This document shows positions 17,799 to 47,562 of a stretch of 64,000 bases of DNA, piece after piece. The notes under the pieces are model-generated. The model saw only the letters and a program-made list of their open reading frames with translations. It was not told the DNA's origin and searched no databases. The stretch comes from Candidatus Yanofskybacteria bacterium RIFCSPHIGHO2_01_FULL_41_21 (GTDB lineage: Bacteria; Patescibacteriota; Minisyncoccia; 2-02-FULL-40-12; GWA2-44-9), in assembly GCA_001794025.1 (NCBI GenBank), contig MGJA01000003.1, forward strand, positions 12,909 to 76,908. Direction: 5' to 3'. The stretch's first letter is position 1. Every line of letters begins with the position of its first letter. The position numbers and the translations under genes were made by a program.

Positions 17799-17800
17799 GT

Positions 17801-18171: not shown

Positions 18172-18275
18172 AGTTTACAAGATAATACAATTATACTCTT
18201 TTTTGATATCAAAAGCAAACTCAACAGATTGAAAAATAACATAGGACATGATAAAGTTAAATACGTCAAATGAAT

Positions 18276-32973: not shown

Positions 32974-33062
32974 GATAGTGATTAGCGAGTAGCCAATAGC
33001 GAATAGTGTCATCAAAAAAGCCATTGTAAAAATGGCTTTTTTGATGTATAGTAATTTTAATT

Positions 33063-33133
33063 TGCGGGATAGTGTAATGGTAGCACGCATGACTCTGAAT
33101 CATGAAATCCAGGTCCGACCCCTGGTCCCGCAG
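33063..33133 (+). tRNA. tRNA-Gln (anticodon CUG)
   Basis: Acceptor TGCGGGA/TCCCGCA, U8, D-stem GTGT/GCAC, anticodon loop CTCTGAA, T-stem CCAGG/CCTGG. Confidence 0.75.
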
Positions 33134-33137
33134 CTAC

Positions 33138-33150
33138 GTTGAGATAGGTT
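33138..33150 (+). repeat. 13-bp direct repeat GTTGAGATAGGTT (copy 1), 4 nt after tRNA-Gln
   Basis: Identical copy at 35197-35209; related CCAGCCAAGGTTGGAG at 33976-33992. Confidence 0.7.
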
Positions 33151-33187
33151 CGGCTTCCGAGGTGCCTTATAAACTAATTAATAATTT

Positions 33188-33529
33188 ATGGAGAATATAA
33201 ATGTATGGCTAGTTATTTTGGGAGTCAGTTTAGCTTGGGGATTATTACATCATAAGGCAGGATATTATGCAGATATGAATAAACATAATGAGGCCTTTAA
33301 ATTTTTGGAATTTTGGCGTTGTTGTCTTAACTACTTTATAGCATTAGTTGTCGCATATTACTTTGTTTCAATAAGATGGGGGTATATTAATCAGGGGGGT
33401 AATCTTTATATAGGAGATTTTATCTTGGGAACCATTTTTCTTATTGGTATTTTCGGTTGGCTACCTTATTTTATTAAAAATATTACTGAGGGGATAAGTG
33501 CAATTTTCACTAAATTATTTACTAAATAG
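33188..33529 (+). CDS. Hypothetical small membrane protein
   Basis: 3 TM helices; first gene of the accessory array. Confidence 0.5.
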   Translation: MENINVWLVILGVSLAWGLLHHKAGYYADMNKHNEAFKFLEFWRCCLNYFIALVVAYYFVSIRWGYINQGGNLYIGDFILGTIFLIGIFGWLPYFIKNITEGISAIFTKLFTK

Positions 33530-33543
33530 ACCCACTACAAACC

Positions 33544-33960
33544 ATGATGACACCAAATGAAGCAGAAAAAATTATAAACAATTACGGAGCGGCATTAGGC
33601 GTCGGCACAAATGGTACTGCTCGTCTGATCTCTTTGCTCCCAGCTTCCAAAGCAAAGATTAGGTATGCTTTTTATGTTTACATTGCTGAGCTGGTAAAAA
33701 ACAGTCAACTTACTAAGGAGATAGGTAATAATCTAGTTGGTGCTTATATAGGATTAAGATCATTTATTGATGACAAAAAGGCTGATAAGTTTAATAAAAT
33801 TCACAGACAAATAGAAGAAGAAGTAAAGACAAAAAATAATTCAGATATCGACACAGAGGAAAAGAAAGAATATATGGATTTTATTAAAGAAGTGTATGGA
33901 ATCATGGCCGATATGGCCGAAATTAATGACTATATACGAGAGTGCCAGGAAGATATATAA
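33544..33960 (+). CDS. Hypothetical protein (138 aa)
   Basis: ORF 14 nt after the previous gene. No motif recognised. Confidence 0.45.
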   Translation: MMTPNEAEKIINNYGAALGVGTNGTARLISLLPASKAKIRYAFYVYIAELVKNSQLTKEIGNNLVGAYIGLRSFIDDKKADKFNKIHRQIEEEVKTKNNSDIDTEEKKEYMDFIKEVYGIMADMAEINDYIRECQEDI

Positions 33961-34098
33961 ATAACTAGTCCAAGGTGTCCAGCCAAGGTTGGAGGTATCG
34001 TGGATGACCAGAAAGCGAGATTTTGCTACAATTTTTACAACGAGTATAATGACCTAATCTAATTGATAAAGAACTTGATGGTTTATTGAAATAAAACT

Positions 34099-35166
34099 AT
34101 GGCACTAATAATTTCACAAAAAGGTAAAAGAACTCAAAAGATAGACAAGTCTGATTTTGAAAAGGAAGGAAACCTTCAGAGCTATATCCATGAAAATCCG
34201 GAATCTATTCCGGTGTATGAGATAGAAGAAAGCAAGCGGCTTTTTGTCGTAGCAAGGGAGTTTAAAACCGAATCAGGTCCGATTGATGCTTTAGCTATAG
34301 ATAAAGATGGCGATATTTATGTCGTTGAAACCAAGCTATATAAGAATCCGGATAAGCGAACCGTAGTGGCGCAGGCACTTGATTATGGTGCATCTCTTTG
34401 GCGTCATAGCGATTATAGTGAATTTATAAAGCTAATTAACGAAGAGATAAATAAAAGATTTAAAATCAGTTTTGAGGAAAAAGTTAGAAATTTCTTTGAT
34501 ATAGATGAAGAACAGACAGGGGCATTATTAGAAGCGATCAGAACGAACCTTCAACAAGGAAATATTAAATTTGTAATTTTAATGGATGACGTTAGCGACC
34601 GGCTAAAAGATCTGATTGTCTATATCAATCAAAACAGCCAGTTTGATATTTATGCAGTTCAGATGGAATATTACAAGTTTGAAAGTTATGAAATAATGAT
34701 CCCCAAATTATTCGGTGTTGAAGTTAAAAAAAGCATGACGAGCAACTCCGCTGGCAGTCCGAGGAGAAAGTGGGATGAGCAAGGTTTTTTTGAAGAAGTA
34801 AAGAAAGTGTTTTCAAAATCCGATTTTGAGTTAATTTTAAAGTTCTACACTTTTTCCAAAGAGTCAGCCGATGAAATTCATTGGGGTACTGGTGTTAACC
34901 AAAGTTCTTTTTCTGCTGGGTTTAATAAGTTAGGGAATAGGCCCTTGTTCGTTCTCCTTTCTGACGGAAGAATGAAAATTTCAACCGAATACCCAAAACG
35001 AGGAGCAACTAAAGAGCAAATTTCCAATCTAGATCATCTTAATTTAGAGCTTAAGAAAATAGGATTGGAAGTGAACCCAAAATCCGAGAGAACTGTTTTT
35101 ACTCTACCTGAGTGGTCATCTAAACTAGATGTTATGATAAAAACTATTAAGAAATCAATAGATTGA
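34099..35166 (+). CDS. NucS/DUF4263-superfamily PD-(D/E)XK nuclease-domain protein (nuclease domain N-terminal)
   Basis: GPIDALAIDKDGDIYVVETK...VVAQALDYGASLW matches the G-x-ID-x-LA-x-D...VV-E-x-K...Q-L-x-Y core of NucS-like nucleases. Confidence 0.55.
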   Translation: MALIISQKGKRTQKIDKSDFEKEGNLQSYIHENPESIPVYEIEESKRLFVVAREFKTESGPIDALAIDKDGDIYVVETKLYKNPDKRTVVAQALDYGASLWRHSDYSEFIKLINEEINKRFKISFEEKVRNFFDIDEEQTGALLEAIRTNLQQGNIKFVILMDDVSDRLKDLIVYINQNSQFDIYAVQMEYYKFESYEIMIPKLFGVEVKKSMTSNSAGSPRRKWDEQGFFEEVKKVFSKSDFELILKFYTFSKESADEIHWGTGVNQSSFSAGFNKLGNRPLFVLLSDGRMKISTEYPKRGATKEQISNLDHLNLELKKIGLEVNPKSERTVFTLPEWSSKLDVMIKTIKKSID

Positions 35167-35196
35167 ATTCTAACATCGAACCAAATTACCAGCCAA

Positions 35197-35209
35197 GTTG
35201 AGATAGGTT
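35197..35209 (+). repeat. 13-bp direct repeat GTTGAGATAGGTT (copy 2)
   Basis: Identical to 33138-33150. Downstream CCCGAGACGCATCGTGGCCTT resembles 33151-33170. Confidence 0.7.
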
Positions 35210-35285
35210 ATTTTGCCCGAGACGCATCGTGGCCTTACTTCTATTCCTATCCCGTAAAAGCATATCGACTGAGTGCCGTATTCAA

Positions 35286-35320
35286 GAACATAAAACCGCC
35301 AATATAGCGGTTTTATGTTC
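35286..35320. terminator. Strong palindromic hairpin (14-bp arms) in a long AT-rich leader
   Basis: GAACATAAAACCGC CAATATA GCGGTTTTATGTTC. Confidence 0.5.
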
Positions 35321-35580
35321 TTTCGCGGATGAGTGAAACAGTCCTTGTGGATAAGTTTGATCAAGGGGCAAAAGTTAGTAGTATATAGTTACTATTTTAA
35401 AAATATTTTTTGTAAAAATTATGAAAGAAAACTCTTATAAAATAAGGGTTACTTCAATTAGGATGTAATACATCTTTACATAAAAACCGATAATTACCGA
35501 TATAAACAGATGAAACTCTTGATATTATATACCATTAAGTTATAATTGTTTTTATGAGTATAGATTATTAACTAAAAATT

Positions 35581-35964
35581 ATGAGCAACACCGACCCACT
35601 TCAAAAATTAGTTGTCAGTGAATCGCAGGCAGTTGATAGACAGGCCCTTGCAGATCTATTGTCACCATATCTATCAATAAATAAAGAAACTCAGTCTTTT
35701 GATTTTTCGGGAGCCTTCCTGGAATTGACAAGTGCGGATAGGATTCTAATTCTTCTTTCTGCCGCGAAAGCCAGGAATCTGATCCTTGGTTTAGATGAAA
35801 AAATTAGACCATTGGAAATAATAAAGATGGAGATTGCGCCTGAGGGGACTATTAAAAATACGCTGAAGAAGCTTCTCGCATCTAAAGACATCAAGGCAGA
35901 CGAGGGTAAATATTACCTGCCGAACTATAAGCTCTCCCAAGTTATAGCCCGATTCAAAAAATAA
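35581..35964 (+). CDS. Hypothetical protein A (127 aa) of a tightly linked three-gene unit
   Basis: Preceded by a 414-bp AT-rich leader. 10-nt gap to the next gene. Confidence 0.5.
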   Translation: MSNTDPLQKLVVSESQAVDRQALADLLSPYLSINKETQSFDFSGAFLELTSADRILILLSAAKARNLILGLDEKIRPLEIIKMEIAPEGTIKNTLKKLLASKDIKADEGKYYLPNYKLSQVIARFKK

Positions 35965-35974
35965 TTAAAATAAT

Positions 35975-36388
35975 ATGGACAACACTAATTTTGAGCAGAA
36001 AATATTGGAGCGTATGTCGGCACTTGAACAGAGGGTTGATAAACTTGAGAATGGCGGAAGTAAAACCGTTAATGCTCATGGTGTCGCAAAAAAGTTATCA
36101 ATCAAAGAGTTTATTATGACTAAAAAACTTGATGACGATGTTAAACGTACTTTGGCGATCGCGTACTTTATTGAACACATGGAAAATACAAAGCCATTTA
36201 ATACCGAAGATCTTAAAAAGGCCTTTCGTCTCGCAAAGATTTCGTTGCCATTGAATATTAATGACAAGATTAACATGAATATTCGTGTCGGCAGGATAAT
36301 GGAAGCAGAAGAAAAAAAGGATTCCAAGAAGGCCTGGGAACTTACAGCAACTGGGGAGACTTTCGTGGAGAACGAACTTAATAAATAG
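35975..36388 (+). CDS. Hypothetical protein B (137 aa; coiled-coil N-terminus)
   Basis: ILERMSALEQRVDKLENG heptad pattern. Confidence 0.5.
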   Translation: MDNTNFEQKILERMSALEQRVDKLENGGSKTVNAHGVAKKLSIKEFIMTKKLDDDVKRTLAIAYFIEHMENTKPFNTEDLKKAFRLAKISLPLNINDKINMNIRVGRIMEAEEKKDSKKAWELTATGETFVENELNK

Positions 36389-36400
36389 TTGATATTCCAA

Positions 36401-37069
36401 ATGAAAGAAAAAAGGTCTGCAAAAAATTCTACTGATGCCCTAATTATTCTTTGGGAAGAAGGATTCTTTAAGAAATATCAGAACTTTAAAAGTGTCTGTG
36501 AAAATCTATCGAGCCGAGGTAATAATTTTCCCTACTCAAGTTTAGCTATAGCTCTTAGGCAAGCTAAATTTTTAACGCGGAGAGGTAAACGGGGATTTTT
36601 TGAGTATATTCAAAAACACAAAGCTGATTCGGAAGTAATAAAAGCCATTGCTCCAGGTTTATTCTCTGATGAGTTATTAAAATCGCTTCAAAAAGATTTC
36701 AAGATAGAGCTAGAAGATCTCAAATACAATTATGGTAAGAGTGGCAACTGCACAGCATTTTTATTACGGAAGATTTTAGAAAAATTAATTTATATTACTT
36801 TTGCAAAGCACAATCTCATTTCAAAACTAGAAGATAAATCTCAAACTGGTCGGTTTGTTGGACTTGAAGCGATGATTAGATTAGCTTCTTCAGAAAAAAT
36901 AGAGGGAGTTCCTTTTCTCATATCAAAAACTGCAAATGAAATTCAGAGCATTAAATTTTTAGGGGACACATCTGCCCACAATCATTTGGTGGAGGTCGAT
37001 ATGAAAACTATAGTCCCACAAATGCCCTACATAATTACTGCGTATAAGGAATTAGTTAAAAAATTATAA
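36401..37069 (+). CDS. Hypothetical protein C (~222 aa)
   Basis: ATG 12 nt after the gene B stop (TTG at 36389 also in frame). No motif recognised. Confidence 0.5.
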   Translation: MKEKRSAKNSTDALIILWEEGFFKKYQNFKSVCENLSSRGNNFPYSSLAIALRQAKFLTRRGKRGFFEYIQKHKADSEVIKAIAPGLFSDELLKSLQKDFKIELEDLKYNYGKSGNCTAFLLRKILEKLIYITFAKHNLISKLEDKSQTGRFVGLEAMIRLASSEKIEGVPFLISKTANEIQSIKFLGDTSAHNHLVEVDMKTIVPQMPYIITAYKELVKKL

Positions 37070-37298
37070 TATGAACAAACCACAAAAATTGTTTGTAGAA
37101 CGCTTATTTAGATGGTAGGTATGGTGTGAAAAAATCACATACTACGAAACCACTCGTGACGACTGGTACTCAGGCAAATGCGATTAAGAAAGCAGAGAAT
37201 GTGGATCCTAATGAGTTGTTAGTTGAGTGTGTTAGAGATACAAAAGTTGGAGGGCGAGATGGGTGGTGTAAACCCTAATAAACTGCTAATATTTCATT

Positions 37299-38483
37299 AT
37301 GGAAAAAGAAAAAATACTCCGACAGTTCCAAGACTTCTTGGTTAGCTATAATGCCGTCCAAAAAGACGAGATCTGGCAAAAGCAGTCCAATATCTTTAGG
37401 ACTTTTTGGAACCAAAGAGTCCTAAATGATCAGGTCAAAGAACTTGATGATTTTGAAATCGATAACGTAATTCGACTGATCGACTATAATTCTAAGGGCA
37501 AAAAAGCTGGCGATGAGGCGGTTGCCAAGGTTATGATCCCGCAAGGTGTTTGGCGAAAAATGTTCAATCAGTTTAAAACGGATAAGAAACTCGCCCAACT
37601 TGTCGATCAAATAATGGGAACATTTGAGCAAGATAAACGCATAAAGCTAATTGACGAACTTTATAAATATAACGAACCGTACCGCAACAGTTTAACTGGC
37701 CAAAGTGGTAATGCTGTTAATTCTTTTATATTTTTATGGGCACCATTAAAAAACATCAGTATCATTTCTTTAAAAGATAGGCAGAAATTAATTCAATTCC
37801 TAGATGTCCAGAATGGACCAAACTTCGAGAATGATTCTACTGCCAAGAAGATTGTTGAATCTAACGATTCTCTGGCCTCAAGCTTTGCTAAAATATTTGG
37901 CAGTCAATATTCTCCTAGAACAATATGCTCCTTCTTTTACAGCCCTCTGATTAAGAATGAATGGCGGTCTGAGGATATTGGAGAAGAAACTGTCCCTTGG
38001 GGTGGTTGGAAAAAATCACCAGAAGAAGATTTTGCACCAATTATAGCCGAATCATCTATGCTGGGCGACCCAGCCCTTTTCTATATGGAAAGTCAGCTCG
38101 AAGATTTTCTGATAGAAAATTGGGACAAAACAGAACTTGGTCAGAAGTACGATTTAATTGAAGAAGAAGGCGAAGTAGTTAGCCAACAATATAGAACAGG
38201 AGTGGGTCTAATAGATATTCTCGCCCGAGACAAGAAAACCAAACAACTTGTTGTTATTGAATTAAAAAAGAATCAAACAAGTGATGATACTGTGGGTCAA
38301 CTCGCTAGATATATGGGATGGCTCGAAGAAAATAAAACTAATGGTAAGCTAACCAAGGGTATTATCATAGCCGCCCAATATGATCAAAGATTGTACTATG
38401 CTCTAAAGAAAATGCAGGACGCAGAGGTTTATTTATATCGAGTGGATTTTAAACTTACAGAGTTCAAAGATGGCTCAAAATAA
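37299..38483 (+). CDS. NucS/Shedu(DUF4263)-like protein with C-terminal PD-(D/E)XK nuclease domain
   Basis: C-terminus GVGLIDILARDKKTKQLVVIELKKNQTSDDTVGQLARYMGWL matches the NucS-like/DUF4263 catalytic core. The N-terminal ~300 aa are unassigned. Confidence 0.55.
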   Translation: MEKEKILRQFQDFLVSYNAVQKDEIWQKQSNIFRTFWNQRVLNDQVKELDDFEIDNVIRLIDYNSKGKKAGDEAVAKVMIPQGVWRKMFNQFKTDKKLAQLVDQIMGTFEQDKRIKLIDELYKYNEPYRNSLTGQSGNAVNSFIFLWAPLKNISIISLKDRQKLIQFLDVQNGPNFENDSTAKKIVESNDSLASSFAKIFGSQYSPRTICSFFYSPLIKNEWRSEDIGEETVPWGGWKKSPEEDFAPIIAESSMLGDPALFYMESQLEDFLIENWDKTELGQKYDLIEEEGEVVSQQYRTGVGLIDILARDKKTKQLVVIELKKNQTSDDTVGQLARYMGWLEENKTNGKLTKGIIIAAQYDQRLYYALKKMQDAEVYLYRVDFKLTEFKDGSK

Positions 38484-38600
38484 GCGGATTAGCTAAAAAA
38501 GTGACACTCTCAAGTAGTGTCCATTTTATCCCTTTTTAGCCTGCCTGAGACGCTTCGTTTGTGATAAGATTTGGATAATTAACCTTTCAATAAAAACTCA

Positions 38601-38963
38601 ATGAAAAAGATTTACTACAATAAACTTATACGCGATAAGATACCCGAAAAGATTAAACGGAACGGCGGGGACTACAAGATAAATAAGCTTAATCAGAAGC
38701 TTTTTGAGGTAGAACTCTTAAAAAAAGTCGGAGAAGAGGCGAGTGGGCTTTTATCTTCTAAGACAAAAGAAGAAGTTACCTCTGAACTTGCCGATATTAT
38801 TGCTGTGATAGAGGAGATAAAAAAATTAAAACATATTACATCAAAACAAATTTCAGAAGCATTGAAAATAAATTTTGATAAAAAGGGAGGATTCAATAAG
38901 AAACTATTTTTAGTATGGTCTTCCGATACCGGATATAAGACCAATGAAAAGAGGAACAAATAG
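38601..38963 (+). CDS. MazG-like / PRA-PH-like nucleoside triphosphate pyrophosphohydrolase
   Basis: YNKLIRDKIPEKI...EEASGLL...ELADIIAVIEEI pattern typical of small all-alpha NTP-PPase proteins. Confidence 0.5.
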   Translation: MKKIYYNKLIRDKIPEKIKRNGGDYKINKLNQKLFEVELLKKVGEEASGLLSSKTKEEVTSELADIIAVIEEIKKLKHITSKQISEALKINFDKKGGFNKKLFLVWSSDTGYKTNEKRNK

Positions 38964-39066
38964 TTTAGAGATTTTAACCGAATCAAGGAGAGAGAAAAAG
39001 GGGTCAGGTCCCTTTTCTTCTGCTCGAGGCCCATCGTTATGATAAGATAAATAATAAGTTAATTTT

Positions 39067-39462
39067 ATGAGTGAACAAATATCAACGCCGGAAAAAGTAT
39101 CTAGAGAGCAAGCTCTCGCTATGTATAGAAAATTTGTAGAGCGTGGAATTACCAGTCCCGATGCTTTAGATTTGAATGATCCCGAAGTTATTGAAGCGAA
39201 TAAACTATTTGAAAAATGGGACGCGCAAGAGAGTGTAAAAGGAGATTTTGAAAGGCATAATTTTGAAAAGACCAAGTTTTATGTTGATGCTGGATTTACC
39301 GACTCTAATTATCTTGGGGATGTTCTAGGATGGCTCTTTCAAGATGCGGGAGATATAGAAAAGCAACCAGATAATCCCACTCGAGTTCAATTGCGAAGCG
39401 ACTACGCAAAAGAGATAAAAAAGATCAGGGACTTATTGGGCTTGGCCACCGGTGGGAATTGA
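39067..39462 (+). CDS. Hypothetical protein (131 aa)
   Basis: ORF preceded by intergenic modules M1/M2. No motif recognised. Confidence 0.45.
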   Translation: MSEQISTPEKVSREQALAMYRKFVERGITSPDALDLNDPEVIEANKLFEKWDAQESVKGDFERHNFEKTKFYVDAGFTDSNYLGDVLGWLFQDAGDIEKQPDNPTRVQLRSDYAKEIKKIRDLLGLATGGN

Positions 39463-39492
39463 GCCGACAGTCGGCTCAATTCCCACCATTTG
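39455..39492. repeat. 38-bp perfect palindrome GGTGGGAATTGAGCCGACAGTCGGCTCAATTCCCACC (copy 1); identical copy at 42567-42603
   Basis: Exact duplicate 3.1 kb away. Followed in both cases by TTTGAGCCGAT... and CCGAGACACGTTGCTA modules. Confidence 0.8.
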
Positions 39493-39577
39493 AGCCGATG
39501 CTGTTATTGATCAAGGTGGTGTTCAGCTAAGGTTAGACGGGTTATTCCGCCTGAGACACGTTGCTAGTTTAAAATTT

Positions 39578-40798
39578 ATGAAAAATATTCCATTTACAGA
39601 AAAACAAATTAGAGATTTTGTAAAAGATCATCCAACGCCATTTTATGTTTATGATGAAGATGGAATTCGCCATTCTGCCCGGAAACTTATCGATAGTTTT
39701 TCGTGGAATTCTAGTTTTAAAGAATTTTTTGCGGTTAAGGCAACTCCAAATCCAAGTATCTTAACTATTCTAAAAGAAGAAGGTTGTGGCGCTGATTGTA
39801 GCTCGTTTCCAGAATTGCTTCTTGCTGAACGTGTAGGAATACGAGGAGAAGATATTATGTTTACCTCAAATGATACGCCAGCTGAAGAATTCAGAAAAGC
39901 TAGTGAACTTGGTGCGATCATTAATCTAGATGATCTTTCCCATCTTGATTATTTGGAAAAAGAAGTTGGCTTACCAGAATTAATCAGTTTTCGCTATAAT
40001 CCCGGATCTTTAACGGGTAATGTTATTATCGGGACACCAAAAGAGGCAAAATTTGGGATTACAAAGGAACAATTACTTGAAGCATACCGGATCGCAAAAG
40101 AAAAAGGAGTGAAACGTTTTGGTCTCCATACGATGATTGCTTCCAATGAGCTTAATCCACAACATTTTATAAATACAGCGGAGATGATTTTCGATATTGC
40201 CTTAGAACTGAAAGAAAAAATTGGAATCAAAGTGGAGTTTATTAACCTGGGTGGTGGGTTTGGAATTCCTTACAAACCTGAGCAAGAAGAGCTTGATCTT
40301 TCCGTTGTGTCGGAGGGAGTCCAGAAACTCTATGAAAAAATGGATATGGCACCAATAAGGTTATTTTTTGAGAGTGGTCGATACATTACTGGTCCGCATG
40401 GTTATCTTATTTCCCGTGTACGCCATATAAAGAACACCTACAAAAAATACATTGGCCTTGATGCTTCAATGGCAGATCTTATGAGACCTGGAATGTACGG
40501 TGCATATCATCACATCACCGTTCTCGGTAAAGAAAAAATGCCATACGATGTAACCTGTGATGTGACAGGTTCATTGTGTGAAAATAATGACAAGTTTGCT
40601 GTCGACCGCAAGTTACCTGAAATAAACACTGGAGACATAGTCATCATTTATGATGTCGGGGCCCATGGCCACTCGATGGGGTTTAATTATAACGGTAAAC
40701 TTAGATCTTCAGAATTTCTACTCGGATCAAATGGTAAAATGAAAATAATACGTAGAGCAGAAACTATAAATGATTATTTTGCAACCTTAAATTTTTAG
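39578..40798 (+). CDS. Fold-type III PLP-dependent decarboxylase (DAP / ornithine / carboxynorspermidine decarboxylase family)
   Basis: TPFYVYDE ... FFAVKATPNPSILTIL ... GGGFGIPY motifs of the Orn/DAP/Arg decarboxylase family. Confidence 0.65.
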   Translation: MKNIPFTEKQIRDFVKDHPTPFYVYDEDGIRHSARKLIDSFSWNSSFKEFFAVKATPNPSILTILKEEGCGADCSSFPELLLAERVGIRGEDIMFTSNDTPAEEFRKASELGAIINLDDLSHLDYLEKEVGLPELISFRYNPGSLTGNVIIGTPKEAKFGITKEQLLEAYRIAKEKGVKRFGLHTMIASNELNPQHFINTAEMIFDIALELKEKIGIKVEFINLGGGFGIPYKPEQEELDLSVVSEGVQKLYEKMDMAPIRLFFESGRYITGPHGYLISRVRHIKNTYKKYIGLDASMADLMRPGMYGAYHHITVLGKEKMPYDVTCDVTGSLCENNDKFAVDRKLPEINTGDIVIIYDVGAHGHSMGFNYNGKLRSSEFLLGSNGKMKIIRRAETINDYFATLNF

Positions 40799-40902
40799 CT
40801 CCGTCCGAAACGTGTAGTTTATGATAAGATTTGGATAGCTACTAATTGCCTTGCGGGGCTTGACCGTTTGACGGTTCCAGCTCGAAGTGATTCAGTATAA
40901 TT

Positions 40903-41463
40903 GTGTCATCCATGAATTCTTCTATTTATCAGATTAAAATTACTCTCAAAGACTCAAAACCACTAATTTGGCGAAGATTTTTAGTTTTTTCAGATATTTC
41001 TTTATATAAGTTGCACAAAGCCATCCAAATTATTATGGGATGGGAGGATTATCATCTGCATCATTTTGAAGTAGGAAGAAATTTTTATGGAATTCCAGAC
41101 CCAGATTTTGATGATGGTACTATAAATGGAAAAGGGATCCTATTGAAAGATATTGTTCCGAAAATTCCGTCTCAGTTTTTGTATGAGTATGATTTCGGAG
41201 ATAGTTGGGACCATATTATATTGGTAGAGAAAGTTATGAATTCAGAGTTGAAAATGAAGCATCCAATTTGTATTGACGGTAAAAGAGCTTGCCCTCCAGA
41301 GGATGTTGGAGGTATTTGGGGGTACCAGCATTTTTTAAAGGTTCTTGGAAACCCTAAACACAAAGAATATCGGGATTTAAAAGAGTGGATAGGTGGCAAA
41401 TTTAACCCAGAACACTTTAATAAAGAATTAGTTAATGAAATTTTAAAAAAGATTAAGTATTAG
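40903..41463 (+). CDS. pRiA4b ORF-3-like family protein (PF07929-like)
   Basis: LYEYDFGDSWDHIILVEK and 'IKITLKDSKPLIWRRFLV' motifs. Confidence 0.55.
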   Translation: MSSMNSSIYQIKITLKDSKPLIWRRFLVFSDISLYKLHKAIQIIMGWEDYHLHHFEVGRNFYGIPDPDFDDGTINGKGILLKDIVPKIPSQFLYEYDFGDSWDHIILVEKVMNSELKMKHPICIDGKRACPPEDVGGIWGYQHFLKVLGNPKHKEYRDLKEWIGGKFNPEHFNKELVNEILKKIKY

Positions 41464-41477
41464 TGTTAAAATATAGT

Positions 41478-41521
41478 CATAACCGTGAAAATACAACAAT
41501 TATCAGCGTTTTTCACGGTTA
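41478..41521. promoter_or_regulatory. 15-bp-arm inverted repeat (CATAACCGTGAAAAA ... TTTTTCACGGTTATG) followed by a TTGACA -35-like hexamer upstream of fic
   Basis: Perfect inverted repeat with an ~18-nt spacer. TTGACA at 41524-41529. Confidence 0.4.
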
Positions 41522-41560
41522 TGTTGACAGAGTCGTGAAAAAAGAGTAAGATTACAGTAT

Positions 41561-42448
41561 ATGGTAAAAGTACTCAACGCCTTCAATAAAGTGAGTTTTC
41601 TTCGTGAGAGATACTATAAAGCATCAATAGGTAAGGATGCGCTTATTACGCTTATATCTGAAACTGAAGTTGTCGACCAGGTTTACAACTCTAATGCTAT
41701 TGAGAATAGCACTCTCACTCTTGAAGAAACCGAAAAGATACTTCTTCAAATTGATTTAGATAGATTCATCTCCGAACGAGAAATTTTTGAAGCAAAAAAT
41801 TTGGCGCGAGTTGTATCGTACATAGACAAAAAAGCTAAGGAACAAGAACTTACTCTTGAGGTGATTTTATCACTTCATAAAATGTTGATTTCAAATATTC
41901 GCGACGATGTTGCGGGGAGGTTTAGAAAGGATGATGAACATGTTCGTGTGGGGAATCATATTGCTCCTAATCCAAAAGAAGTAATGAGTCGTCTTGAAAA
42001 AATGCTGACTGAGTACAATGCAACGAGTCATGAAAACATAATTAAACGTATTGCCAGATTACATCTCGCTTTTGAACACACCCATCCATTTGTCGATGGT
42101 AATGGACGTATTGGACGTGTTATTAATAACTATTTACTGATTAGAGAAGGATTTGTGCCAATAAACATAAAATTTATTGATAGAAAAAAATATTATGAAG
42201 CTTTTAAAGAATTTGATGAAAAGGGCGTCGTTACTATTATGGAAGAAATAGTAGGCAGGGCGCTTACCAATAGCTATCATAAAAGATTGGCCTATTTAGA
42301 AGGTAAAAAAATTATCACTCTCATTGATTATGCAAAAAATAACAAACTTTCTCATTCTAATTTGATCAATAAAGCTAATCGACAAACCATCGAAGCTTTT
42401 TTAGAAAAGAATATTTGGAAAATCGGAGTGGATGATGTAATTAAATAA
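41561..42448 (+). CDS. Fic/Doc family protein (adenylyltransferase-like)
   Basis: Canonical Fic motif HPFVDGNGRIGR. Confidence 0.85.
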   Translation: MVKVLNAFNKVSFLRERYYKASIGKDALITLISETEVVDQVYNSNAIENSTLTLEETEKILLQIDLDRFISEREIFEAKNLARVVSYIDKKAKEQELTLEVILSLHKMLISNIRDDVAGRFRKDDEHVRVGNHIAPNPKEVMSRLEKMLTEYNATSHENIIKRIARLHLAFEHTHPFVDGNGRIGRVINNYLLIREGFVPINIKFIDRKKYYEAFKEFDEKGVVTIMEEIVGRALTNSYHKRLAYLEGKKIITLIDYAKNNKLSHSNLINKANRQTIEAFLEKNIWKIGVDDVIK

Positions 42449-42566
42449 TAAATAAAAATAACTTATAAATTCTGCTCGAGGCCTGTCATTTATGATAAGA
42501 TTTGAATAGTTAACCCTTCGATAAAAACTCAGGGTAATAAACACTCTGTAGGGCCTGTCGCTGGTG

Positions 42567-42603
42567 GGAATTGAGCCGACAGTCGGCTCAATTCCCACCA
42601 TTT
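42567..42603. repeat. 38-bp perfect palindrome (copy 2)
   Basis: Identical to 39455-39492. Confidence 0.8.
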
Positions 42604-42646
42604 GAGCCGATACCGTTCTGGTCTGGTCCGAGACACGTTGCTAAAT

Positions 42647-43255
42647 ATGGATTTAAAATCAACATATAATTATATAGCTGAAGATTGGACCAAAGACCAT
42701 GAGAACGATACTTGGTGGATTGCTGGTACAGACAAATTTGCTTCGTATTTAAAGCAAGGCAGGAGTGTCTTAGATGTTGGTTGTGCCAGTGGAATGAAAT
42801 CGGAATATCTTGCTAAGAAAGGTTTTGTTGTAACGGGAGTTGATTTCTCAGGCAAGATGATTGAGTTAGCACAAAAAAGAATGCCCTCCCGATTCTTTTT
42901 TGTGAGAGATATAAACGAACCCTTAAATTTAAAATCAAAATTTGATGGAATATTTGCTCAAGCTGTTTTACTTCATGTTCCAAAAAATAATATCAAAAAA
43001 GTTCTAGGCAATTTGCTTGAACTATTAAAATCGAATGGGTATATTTACATCGCTGTTAAGAAAGTAAACGAGGGACAGATTGAAGAACAAGTTATAAAAG
43101 AAAACGATTATGGCTATGAGTATGAGAGGTTTTTCAGCTTTTATACTTTAGATGAGATGAGAGGATATCTTGAAGAATTTGGATTAAAGATTGTATATAG
43201 CGACGTCATTTCAACTGGTAAAACTGAGTGGATCCAAGTTATTGCTCAAAAATAA
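42647..43255 (+). CDS. Class I SAM-dependent methyltransferase
   Basis: Motif I LDVGCASGMKSEYLAKKG. The ATG follows the CCGAGACACGTTGCTAAAT module, as at 39578. Confidence 0.7.
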   Translation: MDLKSTYNYIAEDWTKDHENDTWWIAGTDKFASYLKQGRSVLDVGCASGMKSEYLAKKGFVVTGVDFSGKMIELAQKRMPSRFFFVRDINEPLNLKSKFDGIFAQAVLLHVPKNNIKKVLGNLLELLKSNGYIYIAVKKVNEGQIEEQVIKENDYGYEYERFFSFYTLDEMRGYLEEFGLKIVYSDVISTGKTEWIQVIAQK

Positions 43256-43316
43256 CTCTACTTGAGCCGACACTGTTCTTGTTCGAGGTGGTCAACAAAA
43301 AACTTTAAATAATTTT

Positions 43317-43604
43317 ATGAAGTCGTTAATAAAAAAACCCAGCGCTTGGATTCCAATAATAATTCCACTTATCTTTTTTGCGTATCTGGTTATTTATATT
43401 TCTATCTTTGGTATTGTCCGAGAGGAGGATGAAGGGACGGGCGCGCATCTTTTTCAGTTATGGTTGGCCCTGGAACCGCTGATGGTCGGATTTTTCGCCA
43501 TCAAATGGCTACCGCGTGCACCAAAACAGGCAATATTCATTCTGGCGCTCCAAATTGTTGCCGCCCTCTTGCCGATATCCGTTGTCTTCTATTTTAGATT
43601 ATAA
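43317..43604 (+). CDS. Hypothetical membrane protein (95 aa)
   Basis: 3 TM helices. Confidence 0.45.
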   Translation: MKSLIKKPSAWIPIIIPLIFFAYLVIYISIFGIVREEDEGTGAHLFQLWLALEPLMVGFFAIKWLPRAPKQAIFILALQIVAALLPISVVFYFRL

Positions 43605-43607
43605 TTT

Positions 43608-44246
43608 ATGGAAAACATTAAGGAGCAAAAAGAACGTCAAGAGCGAATTCGGGAATTAACCCAGGTTTTGATTGATTTTCTTAGTGAAAGCATTGTGGAC
43701 GAAGAATTGCCTGTTGTGGATGCTATTTTTGTTTTTGGACATTATGATTCTCGGCCAGCGATACAGGCAGCAAAACTTTGGAAGATGGGGAAAGCACCAA
43801 AAGTTATCATATCAGGTAAAGGACGCGATAAAATTCCAAGCGGGTTTGAGACCGAGGCAGATTTCTACGCATCCTTGATTCAAAAAGAAGGCGTTCCAAT
43901 GTCGGCTCTCATTTTAGAAAAACAATCTACAAACACACTTGAGAATGTGCGCTTTGGCGTTAGTGAAGCTAGTGATTTGCATCCTACATCTTTTATTCTC
44001 TGTGCTTTACCACCCCTCCTTCGACGTTCAATTGCAACATTTAAAAAACAGTTTCCCCATGTTTCGGTTTGTGGTAGTGCATTTGAGATGTCCACTGATG
44101 AGTTTCTCGCGCCTGTTCGTCTCCAGCGTATTATCAGTGAATTTGAACGTCTGCATGATTACGCCCAAAAAGGTGATATCGTATCTGTAGAAATTACCGA
44201 TTCAGTACAGAATGCTCTGGAAGAATTAAAAAAACTGCTTTCCTAA
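43608..44246 (+). CDS. DUF218/YdcF-ElyC family protein
   Basis: DAIFVFGHYDSRPAIQAAKLWKMGKAPKVIISGKG matches the DUF218 core. Confidence 0.55.
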   Translation: MENIKEQKERQERIRELTQVLIDFLSESIVDEELPVVDAIFVFGHYDSRPAIQAAKLWKMGKAPKVIISGKGRDKIPSGFETEADFYASLIQKEGVPMSALILEKQSTNTLENVRFGVSEASDLHPTSFILCALPPLLRRSIATFKKQFPHVSVCGSAFEMSTDEFLAPVRLQRIISEFERLHDYAQKGDIVSVEITDSVQNALEELKKLLS

Positions 44247-44378
44247 TTATTTAAACCAAGGTGCTTCAGTTAACTGCTGGCTAAAGCTCTCAAAAACCCT
44301 TAGAATACCCCTAATGGTCTCGTACTAGACATACGAGTCCAGCCAAATAGTGATACCAAATACGGTAAGATTAACAAT

Positions 44379-45419
44379 ATGTTTTTAACGTCAAATTCAC
44401 AATATAAAGTATATTTGTTACTTGCTTCAAGTATAGTTTTTATTATCGGTATATTTGTATATTACAACTTCATTGATAAAAATGATGGAGGTGAGGATAT
44501 TAACAAAGAAGATGGTATTGTTTTTAACGAGGGTGGTCCGGAATTTGATTTAGTATCATTGCCGGCATTGATGGAAAAAGAATTTAATGGGAGAGATTTA
44601 AAGCTTGGTCAGATTCAAGATGGTAATTCTGATTATACTAGGTATCATATTACTTACAAAAGCGGGGACTTAACTATATCCGGGATAATGAATATTCCTA
44701 AAGGAATTCCGCCTGAAGATGGTTGGCCGGTTTTATTCTTAAATCATGGCCATATTGATACTTCTGTCTACACCAATGGCCGTGGCTTGCGTCGCGAACA
44801 GGATTATCTGGCTCGGCAGGGTTTTGCGGTTCTTCATTCGGACTACCGCAATCATACTCAATCGGACAAGGACCCAAACACTGAAACAGATGTTCGTTTG
44901 GGGTATGTAGAAGATGTAATTAATGCCGTGATGGCAGTTAAAAATTCAGATATCTCATCATTAAGCAAAGAAAGGTTTGGTATGCTCGGCCATTCTATGG
45001 GCGGGGGTATTTCTCAAGCAGTGATGGTTGTTAGGCCTGATCTAGTTGATGCAATTGTTCTTTATGCTCCTGTTTCAAGTGATGTTGTTGATAGTTATAA
45101 TCGATGGACTTTGCGTAATTCTTCCAATGCCGAAAAAATAAGATCAGCTCATGGTTCACCGGAAGAAAATCCTGAATTTTGGAAGAATATGTCTCCAAGA
45201 ACTTTTTTTGACCGAGTTAAGACACCGATTATAATATTTCACGGTACTGCCGATGAAAGTTGTGATATTGAATGGTCGCGTGAAACAAGAGAACTGCTTC
45301 TCGCTGCCGGAAAACGGGTTGAGCTAGTAGAGTATCCGGGACAGTATCATGAATTTGGTGCTACCTTTGATGATTTTATGAAGCGGTCTTCTGATTTTTT
45401 CAAAAACAATTTAAAATAA
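44379..45419 (+). CDS. Alpha/beta hydrolase (dienelactone hydrolase / S9 peptidase-like) with N-terminal TM anchor
   Basis: Nucleophile elbow GHSMGGG; candidate His in YHEF. Confidence 0.6.
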   Translation: MFLTSNSQYKVYLLLASSIVFIIGIFVYYNFIDKNDGGEDINKEDGIVFNEGGPEFDLVSLPALMEKEFNGRDLKLGQIQDGNSDYTRYHITYKSGDLTISGIMNIPKGIPPEDGWPVLFLNHGHIDTSVYTNGRGLRREQDYLARQGFAVLHSDYRNHTQSDKDPNTETDVRLGYVEDVINAVMAVKNSDISSLSKERFGMLGHSMGGGISQAVMVVRPDLVDAIVLYAPVSSDVVDSYNRWTLRNSSNAEKIRSAHGSPEENPEFWKNMSPRTFFDRVKTPIIIFHGTADESCDIEWSRETRELLLAAGKRVELVEYPGQYHEFGATFDDFMKRSSDFFKNNLK

Positions 45420-45495
45420 ATCCATTGCTAGTATTCAGGAAAGGTTTGTGTAAGCTTTTTGTTTATTATTCCATAAAATGAGGTAATATAGGGAT

Positions 45496-46053
45496 ATGGA
45501 TGACCATAAGAAGAATTTCTTATTGCAGGACTTTGCCATAATTGTCCTAAGCGTTTTAGTGGCGGTTACTTTAGTTAGGACCGAGGTTTTGGTCAAATTA
45601 TTAACATCCACGAAAGAATTGGAGATATTGGGCAGTTTTATAGCTGGGATGTTTTTTACCTCTATTTTTACCACCGCGCCGGCAATCATTACTCTTGGGG
45701 AGATTGCTAATGCAAATTCGGTCTTGCTAGTGGCCTTTTTTGGAGGTCTAGGTGCGATTGTCGGTGATCTTATTATTTTCCGTTTTGTCCGTGACAGATT
45801 GGCGGAGCATCTTCTGGAATTGGTTAAACACCAAGGAACTGGAAAACGATTCAGGGTTTTATTAAGAATGAAATATTTTAGATGGTTTACGTTTTTATTA
45901 GGAGGCCTGATAATCGCCTCACCATTTCCCGACGAATTGGGGATCGGCTTGATGGGTTTTACTAAACTTCGCTTGTCATGGTTTATTCCTCTATCATTCA
46001 CCTTCAATTTCATCGGCATCTTAATAATCGGACTGGTCGCCAAGGCCTTCTAA
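45496..46053 (+). CDS. Hypothetical membrane protein (185 aa)
   Basis: Multi-TM. Preferred over the K/R-rich antisense ORF 45435-46043. Confidence 0.45.
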   Translation: MDDHKKNFLLQDFAIIVLSVLVAVTLVRTEVLVKLLTSTKELEILGSFIAGMFFTSIFTTAPAIITLGEIANANSVLLVAFFGGLGAIVGDLIIFRFVRDRLAEHLLELVKHQGTGKRFRVLLRMKYFRWFTFLLGGLIIASPFPDELGIGLMGFTKLRLSWFIPLSFTFNFIGILIIGLVAKAF

Positions 46054-46071
46054 TCTAAACAATCTAATCCA

Positions 46072-46860
46072 ATGAATAACTTACTGATTGGGGTTTTTGA
46101 TTCTGGGGTGGGGGGATTGAGTATTTTGAAAGAACTTCAAAATCGTTTGTCTGATGAGAGTTTTTTGTTTTTTGCGGACCAGAAAAATGTGCCTTATGGC
46201 GGAAAGAGCAAAGAAGAATTGGTGACTTTAACTTCAAAAATAATGGAATTTTTGACGGCCCGTAAAATAAAAATGGTGGTTATTGCCTGTAACACCGCCA
46301 CCTGTTATGCACTTGAAGAATTACGAAATAATTTTCCTTTGCCTATCGTCGGTGTTGTGCCAGCCATAAAGCCGGCTGTTGAACAGACCAAGGTCGGCAA
46401 GATTGCCCTTATATCCACGCCAGCAACGGCCCAAAGCCAATACGTGACAGATTTAATAAATAAATACGCAAACAACGTAGAGGTTTTAAGAATTGGTTGC
46501 GCGGGTTTGGAAGATGTTGTGGAGACGGGTAAATTGCACGGACCAAAGACATCCGAATTGCTCAATAAATATGTCGCCCCGCTAAAAAAAGAGGGAATAG
46601 ATCAACTTGTATTGGGATGCACCCATTATCCTTTTCTTAAAGAAGAAATCGTCAGTATTCTTGGGCCGACGGTTACTCTTGTTGATTCCGGTCGGGCTGT
46701 GGCTAATCGGGTGGAGCATCTGTTAGATGAGAACAACCTTAGAAACACCTCCGGAAAACAAACAAACAGGTTCTTTACAAACAAAGATGCCGATGATTTT
46801 TCCAGAGTGGCCTCTGAATTACTTGGCTATAAAGTTGAGGCACAATACGCCTCGGTCTAG
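46072..46860 (+). CDS. murI: Glutamate racemase
   Basis: VFDSGVGGLSIL, IACNTA, LGCTHYP motifs. Confidence 0.9.
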   Translation: MNNLLIGVFDSGVGGLSILKELQNRLSDESFLFFADQKNVPYGGKSKEELVTLTSKIMEFLTARKIKMVVIACNTATCYALEELRNNFPLPIVGVVPAIKPAVEQTKVGKIALISTPATAQSQYVTDLINKYANNVEVLRIGCAGLEDVVETGKLHGPKTSELLNKYVAPLKKEGIDQLVLGCTHYPFLKEEIVSILGPTVTLVDSGRAVANRVEHLLDENNLRNTSGKQTNRFFTNKDADDFSRVASELLGYKVEAQYASV

Positions 46861-46872: not shown

Positions 46873-47562
46873 TTATTGATAGTCAGGCGAGTTGCGATAG
46901 ACGAATTTTTTAAATTTAGACCAAGTGGTCTTTGGTTTTTTGATGACTTGAATAACCTTGCCGTTGACGAGGTAGTTATCCATGTCATCGCGGTGAATGA
47001 AGATGGGGGAGAAACTGGCGCTGGATTCGGAAAGAAGGATAATACGTTTATTGTCGGTGTCTTTAAAATAGCGTTTAATGTTGGCCATGCCATCAATGAT
47101 AGACAGAACATAGTCGCCATTTTTTATAACCGTACAGGTCGGGTCTACAAGAACATAGTCGCCATCTTCAACCGAAAGACCGTTAATGTTGGCCTTATTC
47201 ATGGAATGGCCGGAGGCCTTGATGGCGAAGATGCCTTTTTTCTTGCTTAGTAGTTTACCTGAAACTCGGAGATAACCTTCGGCTTCTTGGTCGGCATACG
47301 CTGTGGCCGGGCCGCAATTGGCGGTGCCCAAGATTGGTATGGCGAGGAGGGAGCTTTTGGCGGTGAGGCCGGGGCGGGTCTTGACCATGACTTTGGTGAG
47401 GCGATCCAATTGAATGAGACCATTTTTCTCAAGCTGAAGGATGTGGTGTTTGATTTTCTGGGGTGATGTTTCATTGATGTATTTTCCTATTTCCCGCAAA
47501 CTCATGTCGGCGATATTTTCCTTTCCGGCTAACGCTAATATTTTTTCTTGTAAGATGTGCAT
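46873..47562 (-). CDS. lexA: LexA repressor (wHTH + S24 peptidase)
   Basis: N-terminal wHTH, cleavage-site region AIPILGTANCGPA, and catalytic S/K (GHSM...K). Confidence 0.8.
   Translation of the reverse strand: MHILQEKILALAGKENIADMSLREIGKYINETSPQKIKHHILQLEKNGLIQLDRLTKVMVKTRPGLTAKSSLLAIPILGTANCGPATAYADQEAEGYLRVSGKLLSKKKGIFAIKASGHSMNKANINGLSVEDGDYVLVDPTCTVIKNGDYVLSIIDGMANIKRYFKDTDNKRIILLSESSASFSPIFIHRDDMDNYLVNGKVIQVIKKPKTTWSKFKKFVYRNSPDYQ

Follow-up and report, generated by a model that had tools for sequence, protein, structure and literature searches.

The 64,000-nt stretch of DNA analysed here (hereafter the window) comes from the genome of an uncultured groundwater bacterium, Candidatus Yanofskybacteria (Parcubacteria, candidate phyla radiation, CPR). 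A block of accessory and defence genes, 12-14 kb long, directly adjoins its tRNA-Gln gene, and the seams of this block carry copies or remnants of one conserved non-coding module, termed here U. We lean towards the view that the block is a tRNA-Gln-seeded "additive" island, and that U is its conserved junction and expression module, widespread in Parcubacteria. Several features are those of such islands: the 3' end of a tRNA gene lies at one limit, the base composition is atypical (GC 0.34-0.39 over 33-45 kb vs 0.40-0.45 in the flanks), direct repeats of the tRNA 3' end or of an attachment (att) core occur at block boundaries, and the content varies between relatives. The right flank is marked by the LexA-like S24 peptidase, since this is the first gene again shared with the nearest species. 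The island comprises 17 open reading frames (ORFs) on the + strand, from 33188 to 45419, among which PADLOC recognises candidate defence genes (PDC-S11, PDC-S02 and a SoFic-like gene). A co-directional array had been singled out in an earlier, database-free reading of this sequence (the original prediction); the array exists, but with about 85% of the genes throughout the window encoded on the + strand it is nothing special, and co-orientation of the island genes alone thus says little.

The CPR have tiny genomes and few recognised mobile elements, and their acquisition of defence and accessory genes is poorly understood. As a non-coding module at the seams of integrase-less arrays beside tRNA genes, U is a candidate for a new recombination site or for a new portable promoter/leader RNA. 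The island itself is of an ordinary kind; to the extent that Rfam and the searchable literature can tell, the novelty lies in the conserved module and its tie to tRNA 3' ends. In searches of Rfam 15 at permissive thresholds (window positions 32800-45000, maximum E 5; 11 loci with canonical copies, maximum E 1) tRNAs alone reached the gathering score, and the other matches (E 0.3-4.5) fell far below it, none coinciding with U. The sequence strings of U that we searched occur in no paper of the searchable literature, and on CPR integrons and tRNA-Gln islands we found nothing relevant there.

Variation of the island among relatives

The FtsX protein of the window led us to 43 related loci, nearly all labelled Yanofskybacteria or Paceibacterota; the related and metagenome loci compared with the window are labelled L001 to L162. 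The FtsX-tRNA-Gln arrangement is conserved across Yanofskybacteria, and the content that follows it differs in all 43 related genomes, which agrees with the tRNA-linked hotspot envisaged in the original prediction. For instance, a homologue of the LexA-like gene is reached after 2.9 kb in L004 and after 5.2 kb in L003, where the island opens with a homologue of the ORF at 39067-39462, and in more distant genomes a homologue of 52158-52853 appears after 1-4 kb. In 22 contigs that share an identical FtsX and come from at least eight samples, both the set of genes and their order are unchanged. The comparison of gene order that had been suggested as a refuting test therefore gives a divided answer: the same-species contigs are identical, but the other species of the genus share almost nothing at this locus. 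Thus, turnover has occurred between species and is not visible in this population, and the degenerate state of most U copies in the window fits an old, fixed array.

As a separate observation, many related contigs (L001, L002, L026, L028, L032 and many of L044-L162) end no more than 1-3 kb past FtsX-tRNA-Gln or no more than about 150 nt from U. Assemblies apparently tend to break at the tRNA-Gln/U locus, a pattern compatible with repeats or heterogeneous populations in other species.

Anatomy and distribution of module U

Placing the spacers of the window side by side with one another and with those of relatives revealed that the motifs numbered 2/5, 3, 7 and 1 in the original prediction are consecutive parts of one unit, U. 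The shared vocabulary of motifs is real, but it represents pieces of one module and not seven independent motifs. Read from its 5' end, U consists of an operator-like box (GCTCGAGACnCGTCG) that overlaps the -35 to -20 region of an extended -10 (TGnTAAnAT), a leader of about 20 nt, an irregular hairpin, about 55 nt long, that is built on GGGCTTGACC...GGTTCYAGCTC and has an outer closing helix, and a single-stranded GNNGGCCAGC(C) end, CCAGC(C), which resembles the 3' end of tRNA-Gln. Many copies continue with a core, YAAGTTGAGMTAGGTT, and a short CGAGAC box; the core (YAAGTTGAGATAGGTT...CGAGAC) is also found directly after tRNA-Gln.

The window contains one intact U and at least eight partial or decayed copies. 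With nhmmer we detected one full copy in it (40781-40910, E 2e-14) and three partial ones (38536, 39016 and 42470), as well as full copies in four other Yanofskybacteria genomes (L002, L016, L023 and L037). A pattern search for the hairpin in metagenomes returned at least 119 stretches, of which about 100 are genuine. A covariance model, CM R1, was built from 90 U copies; it gave one significant match in the window (40832-40899, 45.9 bits, E 3.6e-11) and 66 matches across 100 loci, with second copies 0.6-1.7 kb apart in L069, L072, L086, L108 and L110. These five loci and L131 (two copies; outside the CM search) thus display gene-U-gene-U arrays. Over all searches, U was found in more than 100 CPR metagenome contigs. 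CM R1 offers a concrete, searchable marker of hotspots of the flexible genome in Parcubacteria.

The module is present in genomes whose FtsX is 35% and whose PrfB is 49-55% identical to that of the window, and across such diverged genomes its 66-nt hairpin region still scores 45-79 bits with a single covariance model; U is thus better conserved than these housekeeping proteins. Copies within one array are 60-75% identical, i.e. no closer than to copies elsewhere, which argues against recent local duplication as their general source. We compared the flanks of 78 pairs of U copies with an identity of at least 80%. In 66 of them no flank is shared at all; in 7 only the upstream one is shared, and in no pair only the downstream one. 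GrpB genes stand directly upstream of U in L037, L069 and L085. These findings indicate that U is a discrete module, which, where linked at all, belongs to the block on its 5' side. Flanking genes mostly run in the same direction as U, with the next ORF usually beginning 12-250 nt past the hairpin. Two candidate explanations were discarded. The 72 ORFs downstream of U fall into 65 families, which rules out a pathway-specific riboswitch or leader, and no recombinase is consistently found beside U, the largest families among 707 neighbouring ORFs being ABC transporters, small GIY-YIG proteins and FtsX.

Each of the seven motif classes in the original prediction was recovered from the window, at 0-5 nt from the coordinates given. 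They are strongly over-represented and confined essentially to the island at 33-45 kb, being essentially missing from the remaining 50 kb. Motif 1 (GTTGAGATAGGTT) is exact at 33138 and 35197, inside a direct repeat with 18 of 20 positions identical (33131-33150 vs 35190-35209) that has a third relative at 39524-39543 (3 matches vs 0.07 expected). Motif 2 (CTGCTCGAGGCC) was found at 39020 as described, but its second copy starts at 42472, not 42475. The family of motif 3 (ATGATAAGATTTGGATA) occupies 38561, 40821 and 42492, while its supposed member at 39037 is a 12-nt partial copy. Motif 4, at 38579 and 42510, is the variant leader common to two partial U copies. Motif 5 (CYGAGACRCnTYG) occurs at 35217, 38545, 39551 and 42628, but only the last two copies lie just before start codons; the sole further match in the 64 kb is on the opposite strand at 15431, with one mismatch (in total 5 vs 0.9 expected). 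Motif 7 (TTGAGCCGA) is exact at 39459, 39490, 42571, 42602 and 43262 and, on the - strand, at 39471 and 42583, but at 44258 there is only a short remnant of it. Motif 6, a 38-bp palindrome, was confirmed at 39451-39488 and 42562-42600 and is private to the window genome; its two copies lie within a 55-nt repeat of 96% identity, which indicates a recent local duplication. It forms a perfect 18-bp stem, its tail (ATTTGAGCC) is not T-rich, and a terminator scan makes no call on it. Pattern scans of IMG/VR for the hairpin and for the palindrome yielded no matches and hence no sign of a phage origin.

The hairpin and the promoter-like part

The outer helix of the hairpin exists in several variants (CCGTC/GACGG, GTCCTT/AAGGAC and CACCTT/GAGGTG) and covaries: the alignment contains 44 double-change cells vs 25+-4 in shuffles, none of 500 shuffles reaching 44, and 82% of its cells are paired vs 20-51% in slid controls. 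The sense strand folds better than the opposite one in 79 of 98 U copies, and its conserved G.T pairs would become A.C if read from the bottom strand; the G.T pairs and the lower folding energy both place the structure on the sense strand. The extended -10 (TGnTAAnAT) lies at a conserved, fixed distance from the hairpin. The hairpin is likeliest to be an RNA transcribed from the adjacent box and -10, and we predict promoter activity for the latter and a role at the RNA level for the former.

These features are also the basis of the main rival to our reading, in which U is a conserved regulatory unit or a gene for a small RNA (sRNA) that resides in variable DNA near tRNAs, and the seams are incidental and not recombination sites. 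The variation of the island would then come from ordinary homologous recombination between its conserved flanks, together with duplications and deletions of local extent, and the loss of conservation past CCAGC would reflect the end of the RNA. We regard this as quite possible, though clearly less probable than the additive island. It draws on the constant spacing between the promoter-like part (box and extended -10) and the hairpin, on the G.T pairs and covarying outer helix of this sense-strand structure, and on the intrinsic terminators found within 75 nt past the hairpin in 7 of 83 copies (about 8%) vs 1 in a control interval. It also agrees with the lack of conservation of either flank in 66 of the 78 similar pairs, with the partial copies of the window being local duplicates, with the presence of a DprA competence gene in the window, and with the absence of cassette variation within the species and of a recombinase in cis. 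However, most U copies lack a terminator, and the equivalence of the tRNA-Gln and U junctions described in the next section is left unexplained by it.

Several narrower roles for U were considered and rejected. A stand-alone sRNA with its own terminator would hold for the same 8% of copies only. The idea that the GCTCGAGAC box is a LexA box is not borne out by the region upstream of the LexA-like gene, which has no such box. A role as donor of a Shine-Dalgarno sequence is met with a start codon directly past CCAGCC in just 3 copies (read by eye). Finally, U is not a tRNA pseudogene, as the tRNA covariance model does not match the hairpin and the likeness is limited to a T-loop-like GGTTCnAGC and the terminal CAGC(C).

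Two further patterns surround the module. An imperfect inverted repeat, CTAGCTCRA-N14-TTGAGMTAG, was noticed by eye across the junction; its centre is off the observed junctions, and we draw no conclusion from it. The string AAAGTGACA-N14-20-GTGTCACTTTTGTCACTTTTT precedes the box of 25 U copies (L044-L162), with a counterpart at 38497-38531 of the window; it comprises three TGTCAC sites, one of them inverted, and could represent the terminator of the preceding gene or protein-binding sites.

Linkage to tRNA genes and equivalence of the junctions

The nearest upstream tRNA gene is co-oriented with U in 32 of 32 cases and is tRNA-Gln in 25 of 32, with a median distance of 977 nt. The 3'-terminal 28 nt of the hairpin agree with tRNA-Gln 3' ends at 15.4 of 28 positions, in comparison to 12.1 for tRNA-Thr/tRNA-Gly and 11.3+-0.9 for shuffles. 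In the window the first junction is the tRNA-Gln 3' end itself (...CCCGCAGC). Here the core follows tRNA-Gln directly, as it does in L077, L113, L120, L131, L143 and L153, and it follows the U hairpin directly in L037, L046, L069, L129, L131, L153 and L162. It is also found after tRNA-Trp (L135) and after bare CCAGCC stubs (e.g. at 35186 of the window), and a core-like variant follows tRNA-Ser in L096. Near-identical U copies diverge sharply just past CCAGC, and one GIY-YIG unit begins exactly at this point, after tRNA-Gln in L002 and L036 and after U in L080.

The junction sequence also brackets blocks as direct repeats. In the window, the repeat 33131/35190 (18 of 20 positions) flanks 2.06 kb and comprises the final 4 nt of the tRNA and 16 nt of its flank, so it barely enters the tRNA. 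In L069 an exact 25-nt direct repeat surrounds a single gene, in L153 a repeat identical at 27 of 29 positions surrounds 5.7 kb of defence genes, and L011 contains a 24-nt repeat of the tRNA 3' end; fragments of the tRNA-Gln 3' end lie inside the islands of L010, L122, L147, L068 and L158. The proposal that the repeats mark seams is thus upheld, here and in relatives, by a junction sequence that recurs after tRNA-Gln, after the U hairpin and around cassettes. A regulatory or sRNA unit with incidental seams would leave without explanation the 20-30-nt core common to tRNA-Gln and U, the blocks bracketed by repeats of the tRNA/U 3' end plus core, the tRNA-Gln 3' fragments inside islands, and the insertion of three independent recombinase elements (see below) and of GIY-YIG units exactly at the junction.

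Small GIY-YIG genes recur around these sites. They lie exactly at the 3' ends of tRNA-Gln or U in L002, L036, L037 and L080 and a few hundred nt past U in L094, L119 and L140; in the window such a gene (47582-47794, - strand) directly precedes the LexA-like S24 peptidase gene at the right limit of the island. A further family of short, conserved intergenic motifs, ACGAAGACACTGAGGCTAGCAAGCCGAATGTG and GTATCGAGG..GACCGAAGAGC, occurs repeatedly around GIY-YIG genes as well as past U/tRNA-Gln junctions (L119, at about 600-1100, L139, L052, L083 and L053).

Recombinases at the junction

In accordance with the original prediction, no ORF of the 64 kb has a Pfam match to an integrase, recombinase or transposase. 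Pfam analysis of 26 distinct ORFs of at least 120 aa, located between tRNA-Gln and U in more than 20 loci, likewise revealed no recombinase, tyrosine type included; the families represented include SNF2, DUF2779, PHP-ATPase, AAA_15/DUF4435, DpnI, GrpB and methyltransferases. In some relatives, genes for large serine recombinases (LSRs), whose architecture was confirmed as Resolvase + Recombinase + Zn ribbon, lie within 0.6 kb of tRNA-Gln (5 of the 43 genomes) or at the junction (two metagenome loci). They reside in units of about 1.6 kb that resemble insertion sequences (IS), with terminal inverted repeats of 60-125 nt and no cargo. These units are inserted exactly after CAGC(CA) of tRNA-Gln in L001 (11516-13105) and L015 (11066-12660), and exactly after the CCGCCA end of U in L096/L159 (in L096 about 3610-5290, oriented coordinates), their flanks being inverted copies of each other (CAGCCA...TGGCTG). 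The exactness of these insertions indicates that recombinases target the tRNA-Gln/U junction in this lineage. The recombinase ORF of L001 extends across the inverted repeat and continues on the antisense strand of the tRNA.

It is conceivable that LSRs built the whole array, with U serving as a secondary, tRNA-mimicking attB and the LSR genes being lost later. The elements sitting exactly after tRNA-Gln or U with inverted flanks, their presence beside tRNA-Gln in 5 of 43 genomes and the likeness of the U and tRNA-Gln 3' ends all point in this direction, and there is a precedent in Dehalococcoides, in which islands at ssrA, a tRNA-like gene, reportedly involve serine recombinases. On the other hand, the LSR elements are minimal and IS-like, without cargo, and LSR integration entails 2-bp crossovers and inverted-repeat-like ends and not direct repeats of 20-27 nt; no block of the window is bounded by LSR-type terminal inverted repeats, and no LSR gene is found there. 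We therefore consider such an origin of the array unlikely.

Comparison with integrons and other known systems

The original prediction compared the spacers with the attC sites of integrons. If so, the array would be of the integron type, or a cluster of attC sites lacking integron-integrases (CALIN), with IntI encoded elsewhere in the genome. Likenesses do exist: co-directional, small and mostly unrelated ORFs with structured repeats between them, a repeat on the 3' side (the distal end) of its block in three independent groups, a related head site, a recombinase that is not necessarily adjacent (the absence of an integrase in cis fits a CALIN), and a core variant, GTTAGAC at 39533, that fits GTTRRRY. 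However, attC sites are conserved in structure and not in sequence, fold on the bottom strand and have their crossover inside R'. In contrast, U keeps its sequence (70-95% over some 110 nt in genomes with FtsX 35% identical), has no R''/L''/L'/R' boxes (R'' being RYYYAAC and R' GTTRRRY in attC), and contains GTTGAGA and GTTGGAG, which violate GTTRRRY; its outer helix is NNCCTT/AAGGNN or CCGTC/GACGG, and conservation is lost 6-7 nt 3' of this helix, so that the junction lies outside it and not inside a paired R box. Moreover, its folding favours the sense strand, it carries a promoter-like box, its anchor and primary site is a tRNA gene and not attI beside intI, and tyrosine recombinases, IntI included, were found neither in the window nor among the 26 distinct ORFs between tRNA-Gln and U. 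Membership in the integrons fails on every defining feature that could be tested, and we regard this explanation as very improbable.

Tycheposon islands of Prochlorococcus are tRNA-seeded and built by transient integrating elements, and most of them have no integrase (bioRxiv 10.1101/2020.12.28.424599). The island described here resembles them in abutting the 3' end of a specific tRNA, in its lineage-variable content, scattered tRNA/att remnants and accessory/defence cargo, in mostly having no integrase, and in its directional growth away from the tRNA (bioRxiv 10.1101/2020.12.28.424599). Unlike it, tycheposons have tyrosine recombinases and replication genes of their own, and their att sites are plain partial tRNAs (bioRxiv 10.1101/2020.12.28.424599). 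The seams of our island are instead formed by a promoter-plus-hairpin module that only resembles a tRNA 3' end, the island genes scanned with Pfam include no tyrosine recombinase, and no heterogeneity was seen within the species.

Cis-mobilizable elements (CIMEs) arise when integrase-bearing elements with ordinary att sites decay. CIMEs and the ssrA islands of Dehalococcoides share with our case the integrase-less blocks with att-like direct repeats in tandem at one tRNA/tmRNA locus, and the serine recombinases that target the junction in some relatives. The difference from CIMEs is that here more than 20 loci are as a rule integrase-less, and that the seam consists of a conserved module that looks functional. 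Correia elements of Neisseria are short intergenic repeats that provide promoter and RNA-hairpin functions to unrelated genes. U resembles them as an intergenic repeated module with promoter- and hairpin-type parts before unrelated genes, but it lacks the terminal inverted repeats and target-site duplication typical of miniature inverted-repeat transposable elements, has few copies per locus and is tied to tRNA 3' flanks.

A possible mode of growth of the island

For the tRNA-Gln-seeded additive island, we infer a recombination mechanism at the seams. Gene blocks would be added successively at the junction, which consists of the 3' end of tRNA-Gln or of U plus the core, and each block would tend to bring a U at its distal end, thereby recreating the junction. 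The distal U would read outward and supply a promoter and a 5' stem-loop leader to the next block. The recombinase would act in trans or only transiently; the exchange might be carried out by a trans-acting site-specific recombinase, by junction-specific LSRs or, as a further candidate, by RecA-dependent homologous recombination on the conserved modules of 40-150 nt after DNA uptake, a DprA gene being present in the window. In the species of the window the array would be fixed and decaying, with one local duplication followed by collapse (38541-39577 vs 42472-42646).

A functional analogy with integrons (a head site, a structured distal site for each block, a recombinase in trans) is possible even so. 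In its boldest form, which we find doubtful, U and the core would be the attachment site of an integron-like system of gene capture in CPR/Parcubacteria, in which the tRNA-Gln 3' end would correspond to attI and the tRNA-mimicking U to attC with an outward promoter, and an LSR or a Xer-like recombinase would act in trans. If this is true, the problem addressed by integrons would have been solved a second time, independently.

A number of observations weigh against an additive island with U as its junction. Within the window only one hairpin is significant, the further matches of the covariance model at 33948-33986 and 44293-44346 having E values of about 1.4 and about 1, and the hairpin remnants at 39490 and 43262 were aligned by eye. 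The search pattern fixed the columns of the inner helix, so no covariation can be read there, and the few copies outside the pattern both support and break single inner-helix pairs. A consensus sigma-70 scan, which requires a -35, does not call the box promoters, as U has no canonical -35, and its match count is at chance level. The linkage to the upstream flank amounts to 3 independent groups. Of the 43 U loci whose upstream sequence extends for 3 kb or more, only 15 have a tRNA-Gln, and the bracketing repeats consist of a motif that is conserved anyway, so that integration is not required to account for them. Pfam shows no recombinase gene in the window or in most of the comparable islands, and the LSR elements do not explain the repeats, because serine recombinases leave no long direct repeats. 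Finally, no cassette was gained or lost among the same-species contigs from at least eight samples, so there is no sign of a system active here.

Organization of the island in the window

The features from tRNA-Gln to the right flank are listed in Table 1.

Table 1. Features of the tRNA-Gln island (positions in the 64,000-nt window)
Feature	Position	Strand	Evidence or remarks
tRNA-Gln(CTG)	33063..33134	+	island anchor; ARAGORN; Rfam tRNA 63 bits
Junction core 1: CAGCTACGTTGAGATAGGTT, then CGGCTTCCGAGGTGCC and TATAAA -10-like box	33131..33176	+	18/20 repeat with 35190-35209
Block A: two small ORFs (113 and 138 aa), no family	33188..33960	+	
Hairpin 3'-end remnant (CCAAGGTGTCCAGC) and alternative trailer CAAGGTTGGAGGTATCGTGG..GACC	33968..34010	+	
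Block B: PD-(D/E)XK nuclease-like, candidate defence family	34099..35166	+	PADLOC PDC-S11 E 6.6e-19; weak NucS_C
Junction core 2: TTACCAGC / CAAGTTGAGATAGGTT, then ATTTTGCCCGAGACGCATCG (short form of box)	35186..35231	+	
Block C: five ORFs	35581..38483	+	includes NucS_C/YhcG PD-(D/E)XK nuclease, 37299-38483 (Pfam; PADLOC PDC-S02 E 1.4e-47)
Terminator-like hairpin (38503-38521), then partial U	38497..38600	+	
120-aa ORF, weakly MazG/PRA-PH-like	38601..38963	+	E 0.01-0.02, below cut-off
Partial U, box plus -10 only (CTGCTCGAGGCCCATCGTTATGATAAGAT)	39016..39052	+	nhmmer E 1.6e-4
131-aa ORF	39067..39462	+	L003 homologue, 70% aa identity, directly after tRNA-Gln
Composite seam, four parts	39451..39577	+	
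Ornithine/diaminopimelate/arginine-type pyridoxal-phosphate (PLP) decarboxylase	39578..40798	+	Pfam
Sole intact U of the window	40793..40899	+	box and extended -10, 40793-40831; hairpin, 40832-40899
PRiA4_ORF3 gene	40903..41463	+	Pfam
Fic gene	41561..42448	+	Pfam; PADLOC PDC-S04/SoFic
Collapsed paralogue of 38541-39577	42470..42646	+	three collinear blocks, 87-100% identity
S-adenosylmethionine (SAM)-dependent methyltransferase	42647..43255	+	Pfam; PADLOC mad2-like
Diverged hairpin remnant TTGAGCCGACACTGTTCTTGTTCGAGGTGGTCAA	43262..43295	+	likeness to 39490-39522 read by eye; covariance model does not detect it
95-aa ORF and DUF218 gene	43317..44246	+	Pfam
Last decayed junction remnants: CAAGGTGCTTCAG, then GAGTCCAGC / CAAATAGTGATACC	44256..44358	+	weak
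Distal variable part: alpha/beta hydrolase, membrane protein, Glu racemase	44379..46860	+	not at this position in L003, L004
LexA-like S24 peptidase	46873..47562	-	Pfam; homologues in L003, L004

The family assignments made from the sequence alone were largely borne out by Pfam, namely those of the PLP decarboxylase, PRiA4_ORF3, Fic and the SAM-dependent methyltransferase. Of the two "NucS-like" nucleases, the second deserves the name (NucS_C/PD-(D/E)XK), but block B is only weakly NucS-like and matches PADLOC PDC-S11, and for the "MazG-like" call the 120-aa ORF has sub-threshold matches alone.

The seams differ in their state of preservation. The alternative trailer that follows block A also occurs after tRNA-Gln in L009 and after U in L067 and L140. 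The partial U after block C possesses a box (CTGAGACGCTTCG), an extended -10 (TGTGATAAGAT) and a variant leader, and lacks the hairpin; the terminator-like hairpin preceding it corresponds to the AAAGTGACA..TGTCACTTTT arms found upstream of 25 U copies. The composite seam is made up of the first copy of the perfect palindrome (39451-39488), a diverged hairpin remnant, TTGAGCCGATGC..TCAAGGTGGTGTTCAGC (39490-39527), the core CAGCTAAGGTTAGACGGGTT (39524-39543), and the short box CCTGAGACACGTTGCTA with a -10-like TAAAAT. The only intact U has a degenerate 3' end, with TTCAG in place of CCAGC. The Fic gene has a promoter-like site of its own, TTGACA-17-TAAGAT (41524-41552). The collapsed paralogue keeps a partial U (box, -10 and variant leader), the second copy of the palindrome, a truncated hairpin remnant and the short box; self-comparison revealed that the two genes of 38541-39577 are deleted in it (42472-42646), and a part of the motif vocabulary is thus the result of local duplication.

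Other elements in the window

Outside the island, a 189-bp inverted repeat with 97% identity (4827-5015 and 7065-7253) brackets a DNA N6/N4 methylase (5137-5970), a 176-aa ORF with a weak PD-(D/E)XK match (5963-6493) and an 84-aa ORF, a unit that looks restriction-modification-like. A third, partial copy of the repeat (25583-25730; 82 nt at 79% and 30 nt at 93%) lies in a stretch (25.0-25.7 kb) with GC 0.53 and no Pfam-positive ORF. Another selfish gene flanking a tRNA is represented by a LAGLIDADG homing-endonuclease ORF (2219-2827, - strand) directly downstream of tRNA-Leu(caa) (2828-2913, - strand). The window also contains an ordinary housekeeping RNA, the RNase P RNA of bacterial class A (17797-18181, - strand, 134 bits).

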